NCBI GenBank assembly: GCA_040389905.1
Contig: JAZJZK010000030.1
Span: forward strand, 1-64,000
Reading direction: 5' to 3'
Length of the DNA stretch: 64,000 bases
Source: Gemmatimonadota bacterium
Lineage (GTDB): Bacteria; Gemmatimonadota; Gemmatimonadetes; Gemmatimonadales; Gemmatimonadaceae
The notes under the pieces are model-generated. The model searched no databases. It was given only the letters and a program-made list of their open reading frames with translations, and was not told the DNA's origin. A program made the position numbers and the translations under genes. Each line of letters starts with the position of its first letter. Position 1 is the stretch's first letter. Shown here in pieces: positions 41,416-49,471 of this stretch.

Positions 41416-41958
41416 ATGACAGACGCGACCGCCGCGCAACCGTTCCCCAGTGACGAAGTACTGATCGAACGACTTCATGACGACGTCGTCATTCCGCGCC
41501 GCGCGACAGCGGGGTCGGCAGGGCAGGATCTCCACGCCTATTTGCGAGGCCGATCGGTTCGCACGTCAGATGGCACGCAACAGTCCGACGTGCCGGCGTC
41601 CGAGCTGGATGGGAGTTGGGGAGTGACCCTCCAGCCGCGAGAGATGGCCCTCATCCCCCTTGGATTTCGCACGCGTATGCCACACGGAATCGAAGCGCAA
41701 ATCCGGCCGCGCAGTGGTCAAGCATTCAAGAACGCGCTGACCGTTCCGAACGCGCCCGGGACCATCGACGCCGACTATGCGGAGGAGTGGATGGTGATTG
41801 TACGAAACGATGCTCCGGTTGCGCGGCGGATCATCCACGGGGAACGGATCGCGCAGGTGGTCTTCGCGCGTTATGCGATGCCGGCGTTCGTTGACGGCTC
41901 CGTTTCCCGCACGACCGAAAGGGAAGGGGGTTTTGGAAGCACAGGGACGGGACGCTGA
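41416..41958 (+). CDS. dut: dUTP diphosphatase
   Basis: SAGQDL, QIRPRSG, NAPGTIDADY, GERIAQ, REGGFGSTG. Confidence 0.95.
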   Translation: MTDATAAQPFPSDEVLIERLHDDVVIPRRATAGSAGQDLHAYLRGRSVRTSDGTQQSDVPASELDGSWGVTLQPREMALIPLGFRTRMPHGIEAQIRPRSGQAFKNALTVPNAPGTIDADYAEEWMVIVRNDAPVARRIIHGERIAQVVFARYAMPAFVDGSVSRTTEREGGFGSTGTGR

Positions 41959-41963
41959 AACAA

Positions 41964-41997
41964 AGAGCGGCAGAGCCCGCGAAGGCTCTGCCGCTCT
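41964..41997. terminator. Intrinsic terminator hairpin, probably bidirectional
   Basis: Perfect 14-bp stem AGAGCGGCAGAGCC / GGCTCTGCCGCTCT just after dut; T-rich tail on the minus strand. Confidence 0.85.
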
Positions 41998-41999
41998 CT

Positions 42000-42138
42000 A
42001 TCGTCAACGTGGTCCCAGCCCTGTTACCTGGTGCTCACGAAAACGAAACCGGACCGCAAGACCGCCGATCCGCGTAAACCGTTGAAAGTTAACGGGTTAC
42101 GGTGATCTTGCTGGTCCGAGGCTGACTAGACAATTGAT
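42000..42138 (-). ncRNA. Displaced 3' half of a putative structured small RNA (integration target)
   Basis: Nested inverted repeats CGGACC/GGTCCG, GCAAGA/TCTTGC and CGTAAACCGTT/AACGGGTTACG; ends at the terminator; homologous to 48285-48350. Confidence 0.5.
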
Positions 42139-42329
42139 GAAGTTCAAACTCATTCCATAATCATTACAAGAGGGAATAAGAGGGTTTAATATGATATGAT
42201 TTTGGTTCTAAACCATTGTCAAACAATAACTTATTGCAATTCGAAGTAAACATTTTGTTGGGATACGGCAAGCTCTAGGAACATTCTGAGGGATTCATGT
42301 ACAGCAGATCGTACACGACAAAGTGTAAC

Positions 42330-42358
42330 TTGACAAATGTACATAAATGCTATATATT
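42330..42358 (+). promoter_or_regulatory. Sigma70 promoter of the integrase (probably leaderless)
   Basis: TTGACA (42330-42335), 17-nt spacer, TATATT (42353-42358); ATG at 42365 falls at the expected start site; no SD. Confidence 0.7.
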
Positions 42359-42364
42359 TAGCAC

Positions 42365-43561
42365 ATGCCAAGAAAGAAGACACGTCACCACCGACCGAAG
42401 AACGGGGCAACGTTTTATGTAAACCGTCGATTTCCGCAATACGGCGTTCCACGGCTGTGCCGGTCAAGCGGCACAAACGACGAAAAGGTGTTTGACGACA
42501 TCCAACGCCTGCTCGACCAACTCGGACAATTGGGAAGTCCGGAGGCAGCAAAGATCATCCAAGGGATTCACAAGAAGCGACTTACCTTCGTCGATGCCCT
42601 TGGCGCGCACCAAGGTGAAGGCCGTCAGGGCATTATCAGGCTCGCTGAAGATGATGCTCCCATTGACGAGCGGTCCTTCCAAGCTTGGCTGGCAGTGCAC
42701 GACGTAACCCAAAGCACTCGAACTTCATACAGGAACGCCTTCAAAGCGCTGGAAAAATTCGTGAAATCCGGCGACACGATGAAATCGCTTCCCGCCGTGC
42801 TCGGGCGGTATCGGGATGACTGTGTGAAGCTCGGGAGGAACCGTAGGGCCTTCGACATCGCGCTCGCTGTCGCGCAGGCATGGGTCAAAAAAACAATCGG
42901 CCCGGCCTCAATGCCCTACCGCGACGTGCGGCTCGTCCAGCGGTTCAACGACAAGCCCGATGCCCGAAAGAGCAAGTACTTCAGCCCCCGTGACATCATG
43001 AATATTGCGCAGAGGCTCCCGGCACCGCTGGATGACGTCCTCTTCGCGACCGCATCTTATGGAACCAATCCGAAAGAGTATTTCAGCGACGGGTTCACGG
43101 TGACACCGGATGGCGTTGAAATTCATGGAGAGAAATCCAAGCACCGGAAGCGCATAGTTCCGCTCCTTCGAAATTTTCCGCCCGTAATACCGCCAGCATG
43201 GATCAATTATCGAAGATGGTGGCGGTATGTGACAATGGCATCAAATGGAGAGATGCTTCCTGACGATGCAAGGAAGTCATTTGCGCGCTGGATGTCAGAG
43301 GCGGGTATCCCCTTCAACCGCGCCGAACAATATCAAGGTCACGCTGAAACCACGCAGACGGCGACGTATTTCTATCACGTTGCGACGGCGGGACAATTGA
43401 GAACAGATGGGCTGCTCCTCAACGATTGGATCAAAAAGAACCTTGAGCAGGAGCCCCCGAATCCAGCTGGGCGAGTCATAGCAATTCGCCCGCGCGACGC
43501 AAAATACGAAAAGGGGATGCTGGTCCGGCCGCCGAAGCGAGCGTTGTGGCGGGAGGAATAG
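42365..43561 (+). CDS. Tyrosine recombinase/integrase, divergent catalytic motifs
   Basis: STRTSYRNAF core-binding helix; YGTNPKEY (box I), GEKSKHRKRIVPL, PDDARKSFARW (box II), QGHA, TATY; adjacent to the att repeat. Confidence 0.8.
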   Translation: MPRKKTRHHRPKNGATFYVNRRFPQYGVPRLCRSSGTNDEKVFDDIQRLLDQLGQLGSPEAAKIIQGIHKKRLTFVDALGAHQGEGRQGIIRLAEDDAPIDERSFQAWLAVHDVTQSTRTSYRNAFKALEKFVKSGDTMKSLPAVLGRYRDDCVKLGRNRRAFDIALAVAQAWVKKTIGPASMPYRDVRLVQRFNDKPDARKSKYFSPRDIMNIAQRLPAPLDDVLFATASYGTNPKEYFSDGFTVTPDGVEIHGEKSKHRKRIVPLLRNFPPVIPPAWINYRRWWRYVTMASNGEMLPDDARKSFARWMSEAGIPFNRAEQYQGHAETTQTATYFYHVATAGQLRTDGLLLNDWIKKNLEQEPPNPAGRVIAIRPRDAKYEKGMLVRPPKRALWREE

Positions 43562-43621
43562 GTGAAAGCCGAGCAACCCCTTTCATCATTAATTCCACCT
43601 GAACTGTAGAGGCGACCACAA

Positions 43622-44098
43622 GTGCCGGAATTAAGTGTTTATCGCGGCGCAGTGTACTGGATGATTTCTGATTATGGATATCAAACCTTGAACGAACCGG
43701 GCGACGCGGATAATGATATTCGCTTTCAATGCACCGCTAAGTCAGGGCGCTCCTATCGATCCCAATTTCTGCTATATCCAATCCAGCGCATTGCTAGAGT
43801 TGTCATTCATTTTGACCTGAGATATCACCCGAACCGAAGACTGTTCTTTGCGGAGGTAGTGCACCGTCTCAATGATTCCGTCGCTGTGCTCGGACATTTT
43901 GAATTTCACTGGGATTCCGGTCAGACGAGTTTCGTCTTTGGTGCCGAGGTGACGGACCCTGATCCCGAAACATTTGCGACGATGATGAATCGCTGTGCTT
44001 ACGCCATTGAGGTATGGGAGGCGGCGTCAGGATTCTTTAGCGGCAGACTCGGTGCGGACGGTGTCGTGTCCGTCGCTCAGATGTTGACAGAAGTCTAA
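43622..44098 (+). CDS. Hypothetical protein, possible YbjN/T3SS-chaperone-like fold
   Basis: 158-aa ORF; EVVHRLND...GHFEFHWDSGQTSF resembles the YbjN pattern. Confidence 0.5.
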   Translation: MPELSVYRGAVYWMISDYGYQTLNEPGDADNDIRFQCTAKSGRSYRSQFLLYPIQRIARVVIHFDLRYHPNRRLFFAEVVHRLNDSVAVLGHFEFHWDSGQTSFVFGAEVTDPDPETFATMMNRCAYAIEVWEAASGFFSGRLGADGVVSVAQMLTEV

Positions 44099-44189
44099 TG
44101 GGAATATCATATCATTTTGTTGCCGGAATCCCGAAAGCAGAAGGGATATTTTGGCGGTCGTATGCTTGGTCGGAATGCTGAATGATCCT

Positions 44190-44429
44190 TCAGAGTTCCG
44201 GCAGGAAATACGCTATCGGTTTTCGGTACGCCACGGCCAAATCGCAAAGTTCCACAGGGTCAATTCGAATTTCTCCCTGTTCGATCTTCGAAATGCGGCC
44301 TTGTGTAGTTCCGAGCCGTCCCGCGACCTGTACCTGAGTCAACCCAGCAGCCAAGCGGGCTTCACGGAGTTTGCGGAGCATCTCCCGGTATCGCGGATCG
44401 TGAATTGACCGGGGTTTTCGAGCGGGCAC
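44190..44429 (-). CDS. XRE-family HTH transcriptional regulator
   Basis: LREARLAAGLTQVQVAGRLGTTQGRISKIEQGE. Confidence 0.9.
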   Translation of the reverse strand: MPARKPRSIHDPRYREMLRKLREARLAAGLTQVQVAGRLGTTQGRISKIEQGEIRIDPVELCDLAVAYRKPIAYFLPEL

Positions 44430-44543
44430 GGGCGGGTCGGTGAAGGACCCGCTGAAGATTTATTCCGTTTGCGAATACTCCGAATAAGAATAATATTGCG
44501 GGCCGCTCGTGGTTCACTCCGCACCCCTCCAACACTCCACACA

Positions 44544-44816
44544 ATGCCACGCACCATCATCGCACTCGCCTTCACGATGGCAGCCTGTGCGAATTCATCT
44601 CGCCGAGAAGTTCAAGTTGACCAAATCACGGCGGCCTGCGAAACGAGGGAGCAGCTCAAGGCGTATCAAGGGTTCCACCGCATCAATGATGGCTGCGACT
44701 TCCTTGGGCTGAGTAGCGGCACAGTCACCGGGAAGCTTGCGGACCAAGGCGACACCTGGGCGAAGGTTGAGATAGGTGGTCGGACTGTCTACGTAAGCCG
44801 AAGCGCAATTCACTAA
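44544..44816 (+). CDS. Small lipoprotein with an SH3-like C-terminus
   Basis: [15 protein letters not shown] lipobox; [17 protein letters not shown]. Confidence 0.6.
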
Positions 44817-45550
44817 CCCACAACCGGCAAGTTCTCATGAAGAAATGCCCATGGTGTGCGGAGGAAATACAAGATGCAGCAATCCTGTGTCGATATTGTG
44901 GGCAAAGTACACTTCCGCAGAATATGCCGCCGAGTCCCGCGACCACGGCAAGTACAACAACGGCTTCCGATCACCAACCTGCCCCGGAGTACCCAGCAGA
45001 TCCAGATAGCGTGAAACGCCGGCTGGGAGAGTTCGGTGGATCAATCGCAGGGGAATGCCGTGCATGCACGTACAAGGGTCAGATCGGAGTGGACACTACG
45101 AACATCGGACCCTTCGCCGGATTGGGCCTTCCTGTGTTTTTCTTTGCGTGGACGTCTCTTGGACTTTTCATGTCGCTATTCCTTGGAGCGTTGACATCCA
45201 TCGTCATGATTCTGGTCAAAGGCACCAAGGTTGTAACGTGCCCTCAGTGTGATCGCGCCAGCACTGTCGCAGTACATGTTTCGCACTATGCTATTCCAAT
45301 AGACGCGTTAGCCCGTACGCCAAGTGCCAGATCATAGCTGGTCAGGGGCATTGTTGAACCAACCGATTGCCGGGAACCTTGCGGACCAAGGCGACACTTG
45401 GGCGAAGGTTGAAATAGGTGGACGGACCGTGTACGTAAGCCGAAGCGCAATTCACTAACCCACGACCGGCAAGTTCTCATGAAGAAATGCCCGTGGTGTG
45501 CGGAGGAAATACAAGATGCAGCAATCCTGTGTCGATATTGTGGGCAAAGT
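44728..45550 (+). repeat. 181-bp direct duplication (44728-44908 and 45370-45550)
   Basis: Ungapped near-identical copies 642 bp apart, covering the lipoprotein 3' end, the spacer and the first 24 codons of the zinc-ribbon genes. Confidence 0.92.
44837..45337 (+). CDS. Zinc-ribbon (UPF0547-like) membrane protein, copy A
   Basis: [23 protein letters not shown]-terminal CRAC-hydrophobic hairpin-CPQC. Confidence 0.8.
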
Positions 45551-45895
45551 TCCCGACCGCAAGACATGCCATCCACGCATCCCTCGGTAGCGGCAGGGAT
45601 GGCCACGGGCATACGCGATGCCACAGGCAAACTGAATTGGAACAAAGTAGCAGAGCAAATGACACGGTGTATCCATTGCCAGTCAATGGACACTGGGGTC
45701 AAGTACACCCTCTGGCATTGGCTCGTCGGAATCGGCTGGTTCCCGATCGGAACCGTATTCGCCATGTTGTTTCCAGCACGGCGCTGCAATGAATGCGGGA
45801 AGTGTTTCGGTCCAGCATACGAAGGAATGAAGACAGTGGTCACCCTTTCGCTGATTTGCCTATCCTTGCTCGCCATCTTCATATTCGTCATTTGA
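45479..45895 (+). CDS. Zinc-ribbon (UPF0547-like) membrane protein, copy B
   Basis: Identical N-terminus; different C-terminus CIHC-hydrophobic-CNEC plus a terminal TM. Confidence 0.8.
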
Positions 45896-46086
45896 TGATA
45901 TGAAGCGAGGCCCCAAGGCAGACGGTCTTTTTCTTAGTGGCCAAAGACGCTGGAGAAAGCCTCATGGTGCGCGCCGGATAAAACAATATCGGAGCCATAT
46001 TGTTATGCTGGACGCCTTCCGCCAACCACCGACAAATCCCGGCATCGCTCCTATTTATGGATTGACCCATAAATTGGAGAATTATC

Positions 46087-46305
46087 ATGCAGGATCAATT
46101 ACTTACGACAGCAGAAGTGTGCGAAATATTCCGTTGCAGCGAGCGTAGTGTTAACAGGATGGTGGCGGATGGAATTCTGAACCCTCTGCGTTTGCGGGGG
46201 CTGGTTCGTTTTCGGCAGTCGGAACTCGATGAATTGATTGAGGCGCTTGACTTGAACCCGGATGAATGTCAGTGCGATGGCCAGTGTGAATGCGTGAAAG
46301 AGTAG
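46087..46305 (+). CDS. Excisionase-like MerR/AlpA-type HTH protein
   Basis: LLTTAEVCEIFRCSERSVNRMVADGILNPLRLRGLVRFRQSELDELI; GGAG SD. Confidence 0.85.
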   Translation: MQDQLLTTAEVCEIFRCSERSVNRMVADGILNPLRLRGLVRFRQSELDELIEALDLNPDECQCDGQCECVKE

Positions 46306-46387
46306 TGCAGGTCACAGGCCCTTGATCCAACTAAAAACGTTCAACCGCTGTCTGCCACGTCGGTCTCTCATGCAGGTACAAAAGTGA

Positions 46388-46427
46388 AAAGCTCCCCATC
46401 CGGCTTTGCTGCCGGGGGGAGCCTTTT
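46388..46427. terminator. Possible bidirectional terminator between xis and the polymerase gene
   Basis: AAAAGCTCCCC...GGGGAGCCTTTT hairpin with A/T tails. Confidence 0.55.
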
Positions 46428-46503
46428 GTATCACAAATAGCTTACCTGAACACTATAAAGGGTAACGGAAGAAGTTATGATATTGTTGGGCGCCCTTTCC
46501 ACT

Positions 46504-47928
46504 TCATAGCTGTTCCCCCTTCAACCTCAATCCAATATCAAAGGCAAATGCCTGAATGGATGATTTACTGAGTGAGTGTTCAAGAAACGCTATATCAAAC
46601 GGTTCTTTCGAGATCCATCCGTCATGCATTGGTACAAGAATATCTGAACGGTTGGCACAGCATATGTTCAACGCCCAAGCTTCGTATCCCAGCATGATGA
46701 AGGACAAGAGTCTCTTGCGGGGGTAATTCTTGCCGTCTGATTTCCGCAGGGGGTGAATCTTTCCGGCAGCGTTCCTGACATGGGTGAATCTCCTTCCCGT
46801 TCGAACCCTGTGGGCATTTATGAGTGTTTTCCTTGCTGACCGAATTTCGAGTTGAATCATGTGATAATACGGGTCGGCTAGGATGCGCTCGGCTCCCAAT
46901 TGTCCGGCAATGTCTACAAGCGTGGAGTATTTTCGATGTGAGGAACGACGGACTCCAAAGAAGGCTGCCAAGATTACTATTTTCACCTTGTCCTTCGAAA
47001 TCATCCATCTCCCGGAAAGCTCCTGCTGTCTTTCGGACAAGTGTGTGAGATAGTCACGAATGACGCACACGGGCCTGCCATAGTGTTTCCCAAGGCTGAA
47101 GAACAGTGATGGATGACATGCGTTGAAGTCATAGTTCCACCAGCCAGTATCTTTATACAGTTTCGCTCGTGCGCCCCGCTCCATGCGTTGAAGGGAACAT
47201 TCCCCGAGTCCCATGAGCCGCCCGGGGCCAGTGTGCGGCTCGCTCTCGGGTTTGAAGTCATGGTATAGGTTCGGGACGCCCCCCGCGACGCGAATCCATT
47301 GGCGGACCTTGTACAGCGAACGCAGCCCTTCCACGGACTGGTTCGACGCTCGCGATGCCTTCGCTGCGATTTCTGCCTCAAAATCAGCAATCAGCGTGTC
47401 CACCCGCTGCGTGTCAAACGGAATCACGGATGGAACACTGAATTGAAAAAATGATGTCCGGAGAATGCCATCAGCGGGGAAGTGCTGTGCGCCCGATTCC
47501 CACGCAATGCTAGCGGTCTTGTCCCGCCAACAATCTGTAAGGAGTATCTCGACAGGGCGGCACAGAAAATATGCTTTTGTATATCGCCCCTCCTCGTACC
47601 CGTCGTCCCCATCCGGGAAATGCCACAGATTCCGGAGATACTTCTTGTAGTCTGACTCGCTGCCCCCAAGATGTTTCCTCAACCTGCGTTCGATGAAGCT
47701 CGACCCACGGGCGATTTGCGGTCCAATATGGTGTGCTGCCAAAGCGGATGGGATTGGGTGCGTGTGCGGGCGGGAGAGGAAGTACGACATGTTCAGATAC
47801 TTCACGAGATGTCGCACTTTCCGATCTATTTCCCGCTGTCGCTTCATCTGGGCGCGTACGTGGGCCTCCACGAAAGCGTCAAGCTCGGGGAGTCGCAGTC
47901 GTGGTGCTGCTTCGAGAACAGTGGACAT
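46504..47928 (-). CDS. Stand-alone family-A/T7-like (TV-Pol-like) nucleotidyl polymerase
   Basis: GRL...SLQRM...R pre-motif, motif A YDFNACHP, motif B KDKVKIVILAAFFG, LLSFIMLGYEA, motif C VPMHDGWI; no exonuclease or helicase domain seen. Confidence 0.75.
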   Translation of the reverse strand: MSTVLEAAPRLRLPELDAFVEAHVRAQMKRQREIDRKVRHLVKYLNMSYFLSRPHTHPIPSALAAHHIGPQIARGSSFIERRLRKHLGGSESDYKKYLRNLWHFPDGDDGYEEGRYTKAYFLCRPVEILLTDCWRDKTASIAWESGAQHFPADGILRTSFFQFSVPSVIPFDTQRVDTLIADFEAEIAAKASRASNQSVEGLRSLYKVRQWIRVAGGVPNLYHDFKPESEPHTGPGRLMGLGECSLQRMERGARAKLYKDTGWWNYDFNACHPSLFFSLGKHYGRPVCVIRDYLTHLSERQQELSGRWMISKDKVKIVILAAFFGVRRSSHRKYSTLVDIAGQLGAERILADPYYHMIQLEIRSARKTLINAHRVRTGRRFTHVRNAAGKIHPLRKSDGKNYPRKRLLSFIMLGYEAWALNICCANRSDILVPMHDGWISKEPFDIAFLEHSLSKSSIQAFAFDIGLRLKGEQL

Positions 47929-47958
47929 AAAAAAACCTCATACGGTTAGGGTATGAGG
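47929..47958 (-). terminator. Terminator/attenuator hairpin directly before the polymerase start codon
   Basis: Minus strand reads CCTCATAC-CCTAACC-GTATGAGG-TTTTTTT-ATG; the GAGG SD lies inside the stem. Confidence 0.7.
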
Positions 47959-48250
47959 AGCCGTCGTACTGAATGTGCTTCGCTGATAGGGGTTACTCCC
48001 GATCGTTCCAGCCGCTCGCTACGTCGCCTCCAACATGGTTACCATTGCACAAAGCATCATTCGGGCAAAATCGTCAAGGGGTCTTCAATCCCGCCAATTC
48101 AAAACATGATTTTGAGCTTGAAGGGACGGATGCACCCCGACGAGCGGGAACTATCAATACTAGAAACGACGAGAGCGACAGCAGGCCCGATGCCAACTGT
48201 CGCTCTCTGTCATTGTGACGGTTTCCGGCCCTGTGCACAGGAATCCGTAC

Positions 48251-48400
48251 ATCAATGTTTCGGACTAGCTCAAGGCCAATCCTACGTAAGCCGTTGAAAG
48301 TTATAAGCTTACGGTGACCCTGAAAAGCCGAAAATGACTAGACAATTGATCACCTCCTTCGTTTCGGGGTTGTACTTGAGGGCGAACGGAATCTCATACT
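48251..48400 (-). ncRNA. Putative chimeric structured RNA at the right att (host 5' half plus element-supplied 3' half) containing AAGGAGGTGATC
   Basis: Perfect 12-nt SD at 48348-48359, followed by nested stems ATCAA/TTGAT, TTTCGG/CCGAAA, TCAGGGTCA/TGGCCTTGA, CGTAAGC/GCTTACG. The 5' end is not determined. Confidence 0.5.
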
Positions 48401-48478
48401 CAAATTGAAACGTAGAGTTCCTTGGCGCAAGCGTCAGCGGAGAATTTCCGAGCGCGCCCAAGAGCTCAACTGGAGCAC

Positions 48479-49231
48479 ATGCCGAACAAATCGATCTCCG
48501 CGTTGAAAGCCGACGCCAGAAGCTATTGGACGCTCAGCCGCTCTCATCGCTACAGTCTGCTGTTTGCGTTGCCGCTGCTGCTCCTCTACGAGTTCCTCGA
48601 AGCCGTTGCACCCGTGCGAGAGCGCGGCGGCGTGGTGCGGAATGGCGCGGATGTCGTGCTCACGGGCTTGTCCACCTGGCTGATCGGCCCGCGCGGACCC
48701 CTGGTCTTCATGGGGATCGTGATCGGCGTATCGCTCTGGCTCATTTATCGAGATCGCGGCGCGGGCCGCGTTCGCGTCAGCATGTTCGGTGCGATGTTTG
48801 GCGAATCGGTCGTGCTCGCGCTTGTCTTCGGGCTGGTCGTCGGCATGGTGACCGTCCAGGTCCTTGGTCCCTTGCGCGCGTTGGCGGCTGGCGGCGCGGT
48901 GCCCGGATCCTCTATCGCGCGACTCACGCTGTCGCTCGGCGCGGGGCTGTATGAGGAGCTGCTGTTTCGCGTCGTCATCGTGGCGCTGCTGGCTAATGCG
49001 TTCCGCTTGCTCGGCGCCGGGCGCCTCTCGGCCGGCATCGTGGCCACAGTCATCGGCGCGTTGCTCTTCTCGGCGTTTCACTATATCGGCGCACTGGGCG
49101 ATCCGTTTACGCTCGAGTCGTTTGTGTTCCGCGCTATTGCCGGGCTGGCGTTTAGCGCACTGTATCTCACGCGTGGTTTCGGCATTACCGCGTGGACGCA
49201 CGCGCTCTATGACGTGGCGGTACTGATGTAG
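48479..49231 (+). CDS. CPBP (CAAX/Abi) intramembrane metalloprotease
   Basis: GLYEELLFR, LFSAFHY, AWTHALYD; GGAG SD before ATG 48479. Confidence 0.9.
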   Translation: MPNKSISALKADARSYWTLSRSHRYSLLFALPLLLLYEFLEAVAPVRERGGVVRNGADVVLTGLSTWLIGPRGPLVFMGIVIGVSLWLIYRDRGAGRVRVSMFGAMFGESVVLALVFGLVVGMVTVQVLGPLRALAAGGAVPGSSIARLTLSLGAGLYEELLFRVVIVALLANAFRLLGAGRLSAGIVATVIGALLFSAFHYIGALGDPFTLESFVFRAIAGLAFSALYLTRGFGITAWTHALYDVAVLM

Positions 49232-49239
49232 GTCCCTTC

Positions 49240-49451
49240 AACAGACGTACGAGGTACCCTGAACCTGGTACCCGGATTGGCATCCAACCCAGAGGAGCCA
49301 TCGACACGTTCGATGGCATCCTACGCTCCGCAGGGGCCAGCTTGGGCCGCGTGTGAGGCAAGACGTTCGTAGTGCGACACAGCCATCTATGGCTCCTCTC
49401 GGCAAGCGGGCCAGTCCGGATACCAACGTCCTGGTACCTCGTACGTCAGTT
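49240..49451. repeat. ~212-bp long palindromic repeat / MITE-like element, copy 2
   Basis: AACAGACGTACGAGGTACC...GGTACCTCGTACGTCAGTT; homologous to 38219-38424; sits between convergent genes. Confidence 0.8.
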
Positions 49452-49471
49452 GTATGGTTTCGGCGAGGGTT

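Follow-up and report, generated by a model that had tools for sequence, protein, structure and literature searches.

Which gene does the mobile element in this stretch of DNA interrupt, and what does it leave in its place? The window analysed here, 64,000 nt of contig JAZJZK010000030.1 from the Gemmatimonadota assembly GCA_040389905.1, carries an exact 16-bp direct repeat at 42123–42138 and 48335–48350 (plus strand), and these two copies are the only ones in the genome, which bears out the att core and insertion proposed in a preliminary description of the locus. In our view the element probably lies between core copies placed at the start codon of an rre-type mini-mRNA gene, and its right end appears to rebuild the RNA architecture of that gene with a mostly different peptide.

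The element and its flanks

The element spans 6.2 kb, carries an integrase and an excisionase-like gene, and has a GC content of 52.6% as compared with 63.5–63.9% in the flanks. Integrase catalytic residues, an excisionase, a direct repeat, an empty site in relatives and an atypical composition, the properties of an integrative element, are all present. The divergent tyrosine integrase (42365–43561, plus strand) is matched by PF00589 with an E-value of 7.5e-5, below the cut-off, and by phrog_1 with 7e-7; residues K257, R303, H326 and Y335 are invariant in three homologues, while the first catalytic Arg is not evident. A sigma70-like promoter (11/12; 42330–42358, plus strand) ends 7 nt upstream of the integrase ATG, and the integrase mRNA is predicted to be leaderless. 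Recombination would be of the Campbell type, within the core; among the contigs of one sequencing run containing the element, possibly the run from which this DNA derives, no att joint of a circular or excised form was found.

Profile matches identify an XRE-type HTH regulator (44190–44429, minus strand) and an excisionase-like HTH_17 protein (46087–46305, plus strand; PF12728, E 1e-12; phrog_66). A 474-aa protein (46504–47928, minus strand) gave no match in sequence searches of Pfam and PDB; Atlas structure rows relate it to DNA_pol_A clusters with TM values of 0.50–0.53, and its predicted fold partly resembles family A DNA polymerases, making it a possible candidate replicase. The RNA gene is flanked by two host genes: dut (dUTPase; 41416–41958, plus strand; PF00692, E 1e-17), which is convergent with it, and a CPBP/Rce1-like protease gene (48422–49231, plus strand; PF02517), which is divergent from it and whose true start is probably further in.

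The interrupted gene and its relatives

The Shine-Dalgarno sequence (SD) of the target, at 48348–48359 on the minus strand, is an exact 12-nt complement of the 3′ tail of the genome's own 16S rRNA, as first described. The 12-bp duplex amounts to −22.2 kcal/mol, and the longest 16S match upstream of ORFs of at least 100 aa in the same genome is 11 nt; such a long SD points to ribosome binding, as had also been proposed. An ORF had been overlooked: a TTG start 6 nt past AAGGAGGT opens a 14-codon ORF in the host half and in the element half alike. The left core copy covers the start codon and codons 2–4. The displaced host ORF (TTG, 14 codons, MSSQPRTSKITVTR; 42089–42133, minus strand; CM R1 positions 48–220, 173 bits) is now without SD and without the host promoter, whereas the restored ORF (TTG, 14 codons, MSSHFRLFRVTVSL; 48301–48345, minus strand) follows the SD and carries an anti-SD heptamer at 48313–48319.

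Two overlapping promoter-like motifs lie at 48397–48430 on the minus strand, TTGCGC-17-CAATTT (48430–48402) and GGAAC-17-GTA (48421–48397), the latter of which we take to be ECF-like. A generic promoter scan missed both, but they are conserved in 29/33 and 28/33 genus loci, respectively, and in at most 2 in shuffles. The 5′ end of the RNA is expected near the GTTCGCCC leader. Judged from these signals, the gene is a stand-alone unit with its own promoter and terminator, and its product, about 220 nt long, is likely an rre-type mini-mRNA.

The gene appears to be conserved and single-copy in the host. CM matches are present in 46 of 55 genus genomes, with the gene split solely in GCA_040389905.1, and the exact motif occurs in 71 of 151 family genomes and 64 of 201 phylum genomes, as against 0 and 1 for a reversed control. 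An ORF of 11–22 codons is found at all 66 Gemmatimonadota loci (14 codons at 48), and the SD match extends over 11–15 nt, a range that leaves out bases 5′ of AAGGAGG. Conservation extends to the start, for which the search pattern itself required TTG or GTG, and to the stop at codon 15, where the 14-codon ORFs make use of each stop codon (TAA 34, TGA 8, TAG 6). Pattern matches in GTDB have an ORF of at most 27 codons in 114 of 120 cases and include the 14-codon Bradyrhizobium and 18-codon Rhodobacterales types.

By its sequence, the target matches the rre mini-mRNAs, and Rfam CC2171 belongs to the same class. The rre genes were described once before, in Alphaproteobacteria, as the small mRNAs rreB and rreR (Hahn et al. 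2016, RNA Biol 14:1353, PMC5711450), and the class proves common in Gemmatimonadota. Target and rreB/rreR are alike in a stand-alone unit with a terminator, predicted for the target to yield a small transcript, in an SD reaching the start codon and in a non-AUG start followed by Ser, and they may be alike in an SD–ORF pairing; the rreB ORF also has 14 codons, and the rreB 5′ primer in the Hahn supplement matches our search pattern. This likeness is one of sequence, whereas 30S binding and translation are known for rreB. The target differs by its phylum, by a complementarity of 12 nt instead of 16–17 nt, by TTG in place of GTG and by a peptide without similarity to theirs past the N-terminus; a predicted leader–loop contact and tandem promoter motifs, which the Hahn paper does not mention, and service as an att site are further features of the target. 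As in rre genes, the extended SD leads straight into a short ORF with a non-AUG start (TTG, 14 codons), but the at least 16 nt of complementarity of Hahn's search is reached neither here (12 nt) nor in the 66 loci (11–15 nt).

The best match in the genome to the Caulobacter sRNA model CC2171 (RF01867) is the target locus, with 19.1 bits against a cut-off of 75; 12 of 13 other homologous loci score 18–36 bits, and it is probably the SD that accounts for most of these low scores. Of 20 alphaproteobacterial pattern loci, nine pass the cut-off. CC2171 and the target have the 5′ SD–start motif in common, but their 3′ structures differ. Expression of CC2171 has been demonstrated by Northern blot in Methylorubrum (10.1101/2022.01.24.477521), and the literature covered treats it as a non-coding sRNA.

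For rreB, 30S binding and co-sedimentation, weak translation and start-codon-dependent decay have been shown; 20-fold overexpression left growth unaffected, and the authors concluded that ribosome recruitment is not a major function and that the role of rre genes is 'elusive' (PMC5711450). These last results weaken the earlier proposal of a pure SD decoy, an RNA that sequesters 30S in bulk and whose ORF is incidental. The 12-bp duplex with the 16S tail, the co-sedimentation of rreB with 30S and the conserved GGAAC-17-GTA motif, which suggests stress induction if its sigma type is what we presume, are in line with a decoy; conservation of start and stop, with synonymous turnover of the stop, is not, and we consider a decoy improbable.

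ARAGORN on the window and Rfam at the gathering level returned nothing, in agreement with the reported absence of tRNA or tmRNA hallmarks. The 6S-like RNA also suggested there, an RNA polymerase decoy, would be compatible with the high degree of structure and a length near 220 nt, and as RF00013 detects no 6S in the entire 85% complete genome, the role is free. However, the same model, searched without a positive control within the phylum, has no match in the region at E ≤ 10 or in 13 homologous loci at E ≤ 5, the closing 5′–3′ stem with a central bubble is absent here and not conserved, and the ORF is conserved; the probability of a 6S RNA is close to negligible. Rfam Ms_IGR-5 (RF02471) has six weak matches elsewhere and none at the locus.

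Folding of the host and element halves

On the minus strand, the displaced host half comprises a hairpin P2 (42050–42118), in which codons 5–14 are paired with the strand 3′ of the stop codon, a hairpin P3 (41999–42046, ends approximate) with the loop AGGGC at 42018–42022, and a terminator hairpin (41964–41997), a 14-bp perfect inverted repeat with two-sided changes at 7 of 13 pairs that is likely common to the RNA gene and dut. The element half has its own P2 with compensatory changes (48258–48333), P3 (48211–48256, ends approximate) with the same loop AGGGC at 48228–48232, and a terminator hairpin recognized by inverted repeat and folding (48171–48207), all on the minus strand. A GCCCT in the 5′ leader (48379–48383, minus strand) is the predicted partner of the P3 loop. 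The order of promoter-like motifs, 12-nt SD, TTG, 14 codons, stop, P2, P3 and terminator is the same in both halves and in relatives.

All 14 stem words listed in the preliminary description are found where it placed them, and the equivalent stems that it assigned to the element copy at 48251–48334 stand; its extent does not, as a second hairpin and the element's own terminator carry the copy on to about 48170. The long hairpin with an internal bubble is not supported: its outer GGTGATCA/TGAGCACC stem has a pair probability of about 0.001 and costs 4.6 kcal/mol to force, and none of 50 homologues pairs the SD with that region beyond shuffles (z < −2). The minus strand folds better than expected by chance (z −7.6 for the host half and −5.6 for the restored gene, as compared with −2.0 for the restored plus strand), confirming the strand preference. 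Among homologues, two-sided changes are seen at 25 of 57 pairs of the consensus structure (0/500 shuffles), a structure taken from the very alignment on which it is tested: for the close clade RNAalifold returned the SD:anti-SD fold instead of P2, which was obtained with the 5′ 64 columns kept unpaired. Partner swaps destabilised P2 in 98% of 1544 divergent pairs. As first proposed, the minus strand of the target carries a gene for a structured RNA, and a conserved one, and the element 3′ half can form the same stems.

Host and element 3′ halves share only 54% identity, and the element version retains the ORF length, anti-SD, stems and terminator but no more than 3 of 11 residues past the core. 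Retention of the frame in the element carries little weight by itself, since 14 random substitutions leave an open frame and stop in 24% of trials. The element P2 forms a duplex of −30.8 with its own 3′ strand and of −18.2 with the host strand, and its stability is matched by 7 of 1000 random variants of equal divergence. The replacement tail is predicted to fold like the host tail despite strong divergence, which hints that the shape of the RNA outweighs the peptide in importance.

The peptide could nevertheless be the functional product, as a small protein or a nascent-chain effector, the element version being tolerated or inactive. The ORF keeps its length and the position of its stop, S2 is found in 48/48, I/V10 in 44/48 and R14 in 34/48 through three synonymous codons, pN/pS is 0.62 over 230 non-independent close pairs, and Hahn et al. 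reported peptides conserved at the clade level (PMC5711450). On the other hand, the element keeps the stems with few of the residues, and codon 9 varies between R, K, L and W with a third-base G in 50/50, a constraint at the RNA level; the synthetic RreB and RreR peptides lacked both structure and mutual sequence similarity (PMC5711450). We judge a peptide function unlikely.

Stems could also be retained as protein-binding palindromes or as a folded single-stranded DNA recombination site, as the preliminary description envisaged. Folded single-stranded att sites exist, such as integron attC and CTX attP, and the element does retain stems adjoining the att core. But fold, ORF and promoter motifs are kept in 45 other genus genomes in which the gene is unsplit, P2 includes hardly any of the core and folding is strand-biased, which leaves a DNA-level role exceedingly improbable.

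A possible switch, and rre genes as insertion sites

For a mini-mRNA whose fold is preserved, the following course can be envisaged. By analogy with rreB, the RNA would bind 30S tightly through its SD, with weak initiation at the non-AUG codon and start-codon-dependent turnover. P2 seems to leave the SD accessible; by translating the ORF, a ribosome would open P2 and release the anti-SD in codons 9–11 for pairing with the SD, and the RNA would therefore act as a self-limiting, ribosome-sensing switch. The SD:codon 9–11 helix is 97.4% paired (346 cells, 50 rows) as compared with 22–54% when slid, yet the switch is unproven because the helix shows zero two-sided changes across the 50 rows. When single sequences are folded, 44 of 48 loci prefer P2 and just 3 the SD:anti-SD helix; for the restored RNA, P2 enters the MFE structure only if the SD region is kept open. 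More tentatively, rre-type RNAs may be cross-phylum ribosome-sensing switches, likely under an ECF stress promoter, that function in 30S engagement and refolding and not through the peptide, and they may be important enough for unrelated mobile elements, a tyrosine-integrase island in Gemmatimonadota and a prophage in Brevundimonas, to target their ribosome-binding site while leaving a complete-looking RNA.

Type I toxin mRNAs resemble the target in their strong SD, internal anti-SD and 5′–3′ contact, and a leader-peptide attenuator could be considered as the RNA, after insertion, points toward the element's 474-aa gene. However, the host peptides are short, mostly hydrophilic and not transmembrane-like, and an attenuator would have nothing to attenuate because dut, in convergent orientation, is what mostly follows in the empty state (24 of 30 genus loci); either role is very improbable.

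If the switch reading holds, the window offers a swap performed by nature that singles out what the RNA needs, namely a long SD, a non-AUG start, a frame of 14 codons, an anti-SD in codons 9–11, P2, a leader–loop pseudoknot and a terminator. The swap yields a short list of mutations testable in culturable hosts (CC2171 of Caulobacter/Brevundimonas, rreB of Bradyrhizobium). An RNA rebuilt by a mobile element with a different peptide speaks, in evolutionary terms, for the importance of the gene and for a fold that may outweigh the product.

Islands at tRNA/tmRNA, icd and the sRNA genes ryeB and ryeE resemble the element in having a tyrosine integrase that adjoins the displaced 3′ fragment and in reconstituting the target; at icd of E. 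coli the duplication restores the 3′ end with the ORF length unchanged (PMC3603311; PMC12884075). Here, in contrast, a mini-mRNA is targeted, the replacement shares 54% identity and contains compensatory pairs, and about 170 nt are replaced because the crossover falls at the start codon. As with tRNA-targeting islands, selection on the element would keep the host RNA working. The rre genes thereby add a class of att targets, and island finders would score such sites as intergenic.

No second element was found inside the RNA gene across the phylum genomes and loci searched. The 16-bp core occurs in 63 GTDB stretches, and none of the 13 matches listed (SD-bearing or 14-codon) is a displaced fragment, because all 13 had the SD; in G010, a 1-kb gap between the RNA gene and dut has neither a duplicated core nor an integrase match. 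A single-protein GTDB scan gave no relative, and distant integrases in 9 of 300 family genomes and at 10 metagenome loci do not adjoin an rre motif. Four recombinase queries found nothing within 3 kb of 48 mostly Caulobacteraceae loci (0/48); the serine recombinase of G338 has no relatives in GTDB, and the G338 left-junction probe gave, besides G338, chance matches only. In the literature covered, with most subscription journals outside it, we found neither the occurrence of rre genes in Gemmatimonadota nor their use as att sites reported. An independent insertion into such a gene is that of a Brevundimonas-type prophage, lodged in the SD of a CC2171 gene, and relatives of the integrase adjoin tRNA 3′ duplications in 3 of the 9 regions fetched.

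An island in a predicted mini-mRNA gene

An exact 16-bp direct repeat (42123-42138 and 48335-48350), with no other copy in the genome, encloses 6.2 kb of 52.6% GC between flanks of 63.5-63.9%; the enclosed genes include a divergent tyrosine integrase, an XRE regulator and an excisionase-like gene. By its sequence, the window holds a real gene-restoring island whose predicted target is a Gemmatimonadota rre-like mini-mRNA gene. As the preliminary description had claimed, the minus strand at 48348-48359 carries a 12-nt Shine-Dalgarno (SD) sequence, an exact complement of the genome's own 16S tail; this 12-mer occurs three times in the genome, in the target gene, the 16S gene and one further place. 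A TTG located 6 nt downstream of AAGGAGGT starts a 14-codon ORF both in the displaced host half at the left core (MSSQPRTSKITVTR) and in the element half at the right core (MSSHFRLFRVTVSL). The dut gene adjoins the RNA gene in 24/30 genus loci and 6/30 family loci. Upstream, a sigma70-like motif is kept in 29/33 genus loci and an overlapping GGAAC-17-GTA motif, presumably an ECF-like promoter, in 28/33, with at most 2 in shuffles for either, both patterns having been defined only after some of the sequences had been viewed.

Target restoration is described as ordinary for islands in the available portions of two reports (PMC12884075, PMC3603311). Occupancy of rre-type genes by mobile elements is rare: the RNA gene is occupied in 1 of 46 genus genomes, that of the window, and no occupied site was found among 48 loci, mostly from Caulobacteraceae. 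Relatives of the integrase are distant (24-28% identity) and present in 9/300 family genomes. As three of the nine regions fetched carry duplicated tRNA ends beside the integrase and none carries the rre motif there, the target of the window element is likely a switch away from tRNA sites.

Several other features were observed in and around the element. The 474-aa product of a gene at 46504-47928 (minus strand) shows motifs and a predicted fold like those of polymerase A but has no Pfam match; the likely SD of the gene sits in a hairpin of 8 bp, with a T run after it, immediately 5' of the ATG (47936-47958), an arrangement that we take to resemble attenuated plasmid rep genes. A 201-nt direct repeat (93%; 44728-44928 and 45370-45570) resembles a duplicated cassette; it covers the tail of an SH3-like ORF together with the beginnings of two zinc-ribbon membrane-protein genes. 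Two promoter-like sites (9/12 each) are found at the left end, one (42308-42336, minus strand) aimed at the displaced 3' half and the other (42134-42161, plus strand) overlapping the core and aimed into the element. After the CPBP protease gene, 49234-49457 forms a long imperfect inverted repeat, REP/MITE-like, with many copies in the window genome and in other contigs of X1, the sequencing run holding the element.

The replacement half and its predicted fold

After the core, the two halves are 54% identical. Because the host half is closer to 15 relatives (58-79% identity) than the element half is (42-65%), the left half is assigned on sequence as native and the right one as brought by the element. 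The element half retains the ORF length, the anti-SD (a heptamer in codons 9-11 able to pair with the SD), the loop of the second hairpin, P3, and a terminator; its peptide retains just 3/11 residues, and chance survival of frame and stop alone is 24%. P2 is the hairpin of the ORF with the strand after its stop. For the element ORF, this pairing reaches -30.8 with the 3' strand of the element and -18.2 with that of the host; for the host ORF, it reaches -35.2 with the host strand and -24.2 with the element strand. Only 7/1000 equally diverged random variants match the element P2 stability. The earlier proposal that the replacement half folds the same way is a prediction, since P2 is missing from the MFE structure of the restored RNA when folding is unconstrained and appears only with the SD region held open.

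All 14 stem words listed in the preliminary description are present. The long outer stem that it drew around the SD has a pair probability of about 0.001, and in 0/50 sequences does the SD pair there above shuffles at z<-2, so the suggested 6S-like shape fails with it. Folding z-scores are -7.6 for the displaced half and -5.6 for the restored gene, and -2.0 for the plus strand. In the close clade, 25/57 pairs of P2, P3 and the terminator show two-sided changes, mostly in P3 and the terminator, a level reached by 0/500 shuffles; the tested structure came from the same alignment, and the sequences are related and hence not independent. Swapping 3' strands between ORFs less than 60% identical, an alignment-free comparison, makes P2 less stable in 98% of 1544 pairs (mean loss 10.9 kcal/mol); the own strand is the single best partner in just 8/50.

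Codons 9-11 are able to pair with the SD in 97.4% of 346 cells, against 22-54% once slid, and at codon 9 the third position is always G (50/50) despite the varying residue. As equilibrium folding favours P2 in 44/48 loci, we only infer a candidate ribosome-sensing switch, in which P2 would compete with the helix between the SD and codons 9-11. A leader-to-loop contact averages 4.52 bp, versus 4.16 for permuted partners (6/5000); L143 and L146-148 offer compensated cases, and several loci lack the contact.

Distribution and relation to rre and CC2171

A covariance model built on 17 sequences, both window halves among them, matches 46/55 genus genomes, and only the window genome has a full and a 5'-truncated copy together. 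The exact SD-start pattern is found in 71/151 family and 64/201 phylum genomes (reversed control, 0 and 1), tallies that take in the unpublished G012, G073, G174 and G402; G012 was excluded from every alignment. Each of 66 distinct loci, counted without G012, the window genome, one coding-region match, duplicates and truncated loci, has an ORF of 11-22 codons; in 48 of them it has exactly 14 codons, ending in TAA (34), TGA (8) or TAG (6). The exchange of one stop codon for another at an unchanged position indicates selection for terminating there. A subtype with 20-22 codons (L149, L152, L157, L163-L165, L168, L019) was noted, several of whose loci carry TGGGC within the ORF, a possible partner of the leader GCCC. 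Two genomes have two copies each, G005 (contigs C197 and C107) and G059 (C168), the latter apparently identical, inverted and 4 kb apart.

In GTDB the SD-start pattern has an estimated 4600 matches. Among the 120 listed, 114 have an ORF of at most 27 codons and 17 are assigned to Gemmatimonadota (16 from the title), most others being Alphaproteobacteria by title; they include ORFs of 14 (Bradyrhizobium) and 18 codons (Rhodobacterales), the same as in rreB and rreR according to the accessible part of Hahn et al. (PMC5711450). There, rreB is shown to bind 30S, to be translated weakly and to decay in a start-codon-dependent manner; overexpression is reported without effect on growth, only Alphaproteobacteria are named, and the SD complementarity is given as 16-17 nt, longer than the 12 nt of the window. 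CC2171 (Rfam RF01867), whose expression is confirmed in Methylorubrum in the available part of a report (10.1101/2022.01.24.477521), belongs to the rre class, because 9/20 alphaproteobacterial loci exceed its cut-off; the best match in the window genome is the target locus, yet at just 19 bits. By analogy, the window gene would work like an rre gene, and we do not claim formal membership. The RNA class is already known; our search of literature listings found no report of its occurrence in Gemmatimonadota or of its use as an att site. A 65-codon phage gene in IMG/VR also opens with an extended SD and TTG-TCT as in rre genes (L271, L277, L279, L281, L282, L286, L288, L290, L293, L294, L296).

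A prophage in a CC2171 gene

The 44-kb viral record G338 opens on host-type DNA that shares 80% identity, over 412 nt, with the region lying upstream of the CC2171 gene of Brevundimonas intermedia; at its end, 91 nt match that gene itself at 90% identity. G338 (C1 ends; L305:1-520, L302/L292 end) is read as a prophage that interrupts a Brevundimonas-type CC2171 gene at its extended SD, and next to this gene lies what we take to be a flaF-like gene. At the left junction stand the host leader, part of the SD and a 13-codon ORF with an ATG start, its peptide beginning MSH; at the right junction SD and ORF are intact and adjoin a large serine recombinase, a tyrosine integrase being located at the other end. 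A repeat of 10 bp at the SD is not significant by itself, given an unrelated match of 11 bp.

In G337 (L276), an anti-SD and the gene of a T7-like RNA polymerase directly follow a host-type rre leader, SD and GTG. This may be a further prophage junction within the start region of an rre gene; a search for the second end found none. The right-end layout of G338 recurs in G339 (L295), beside a T7-like RNA polymerase.
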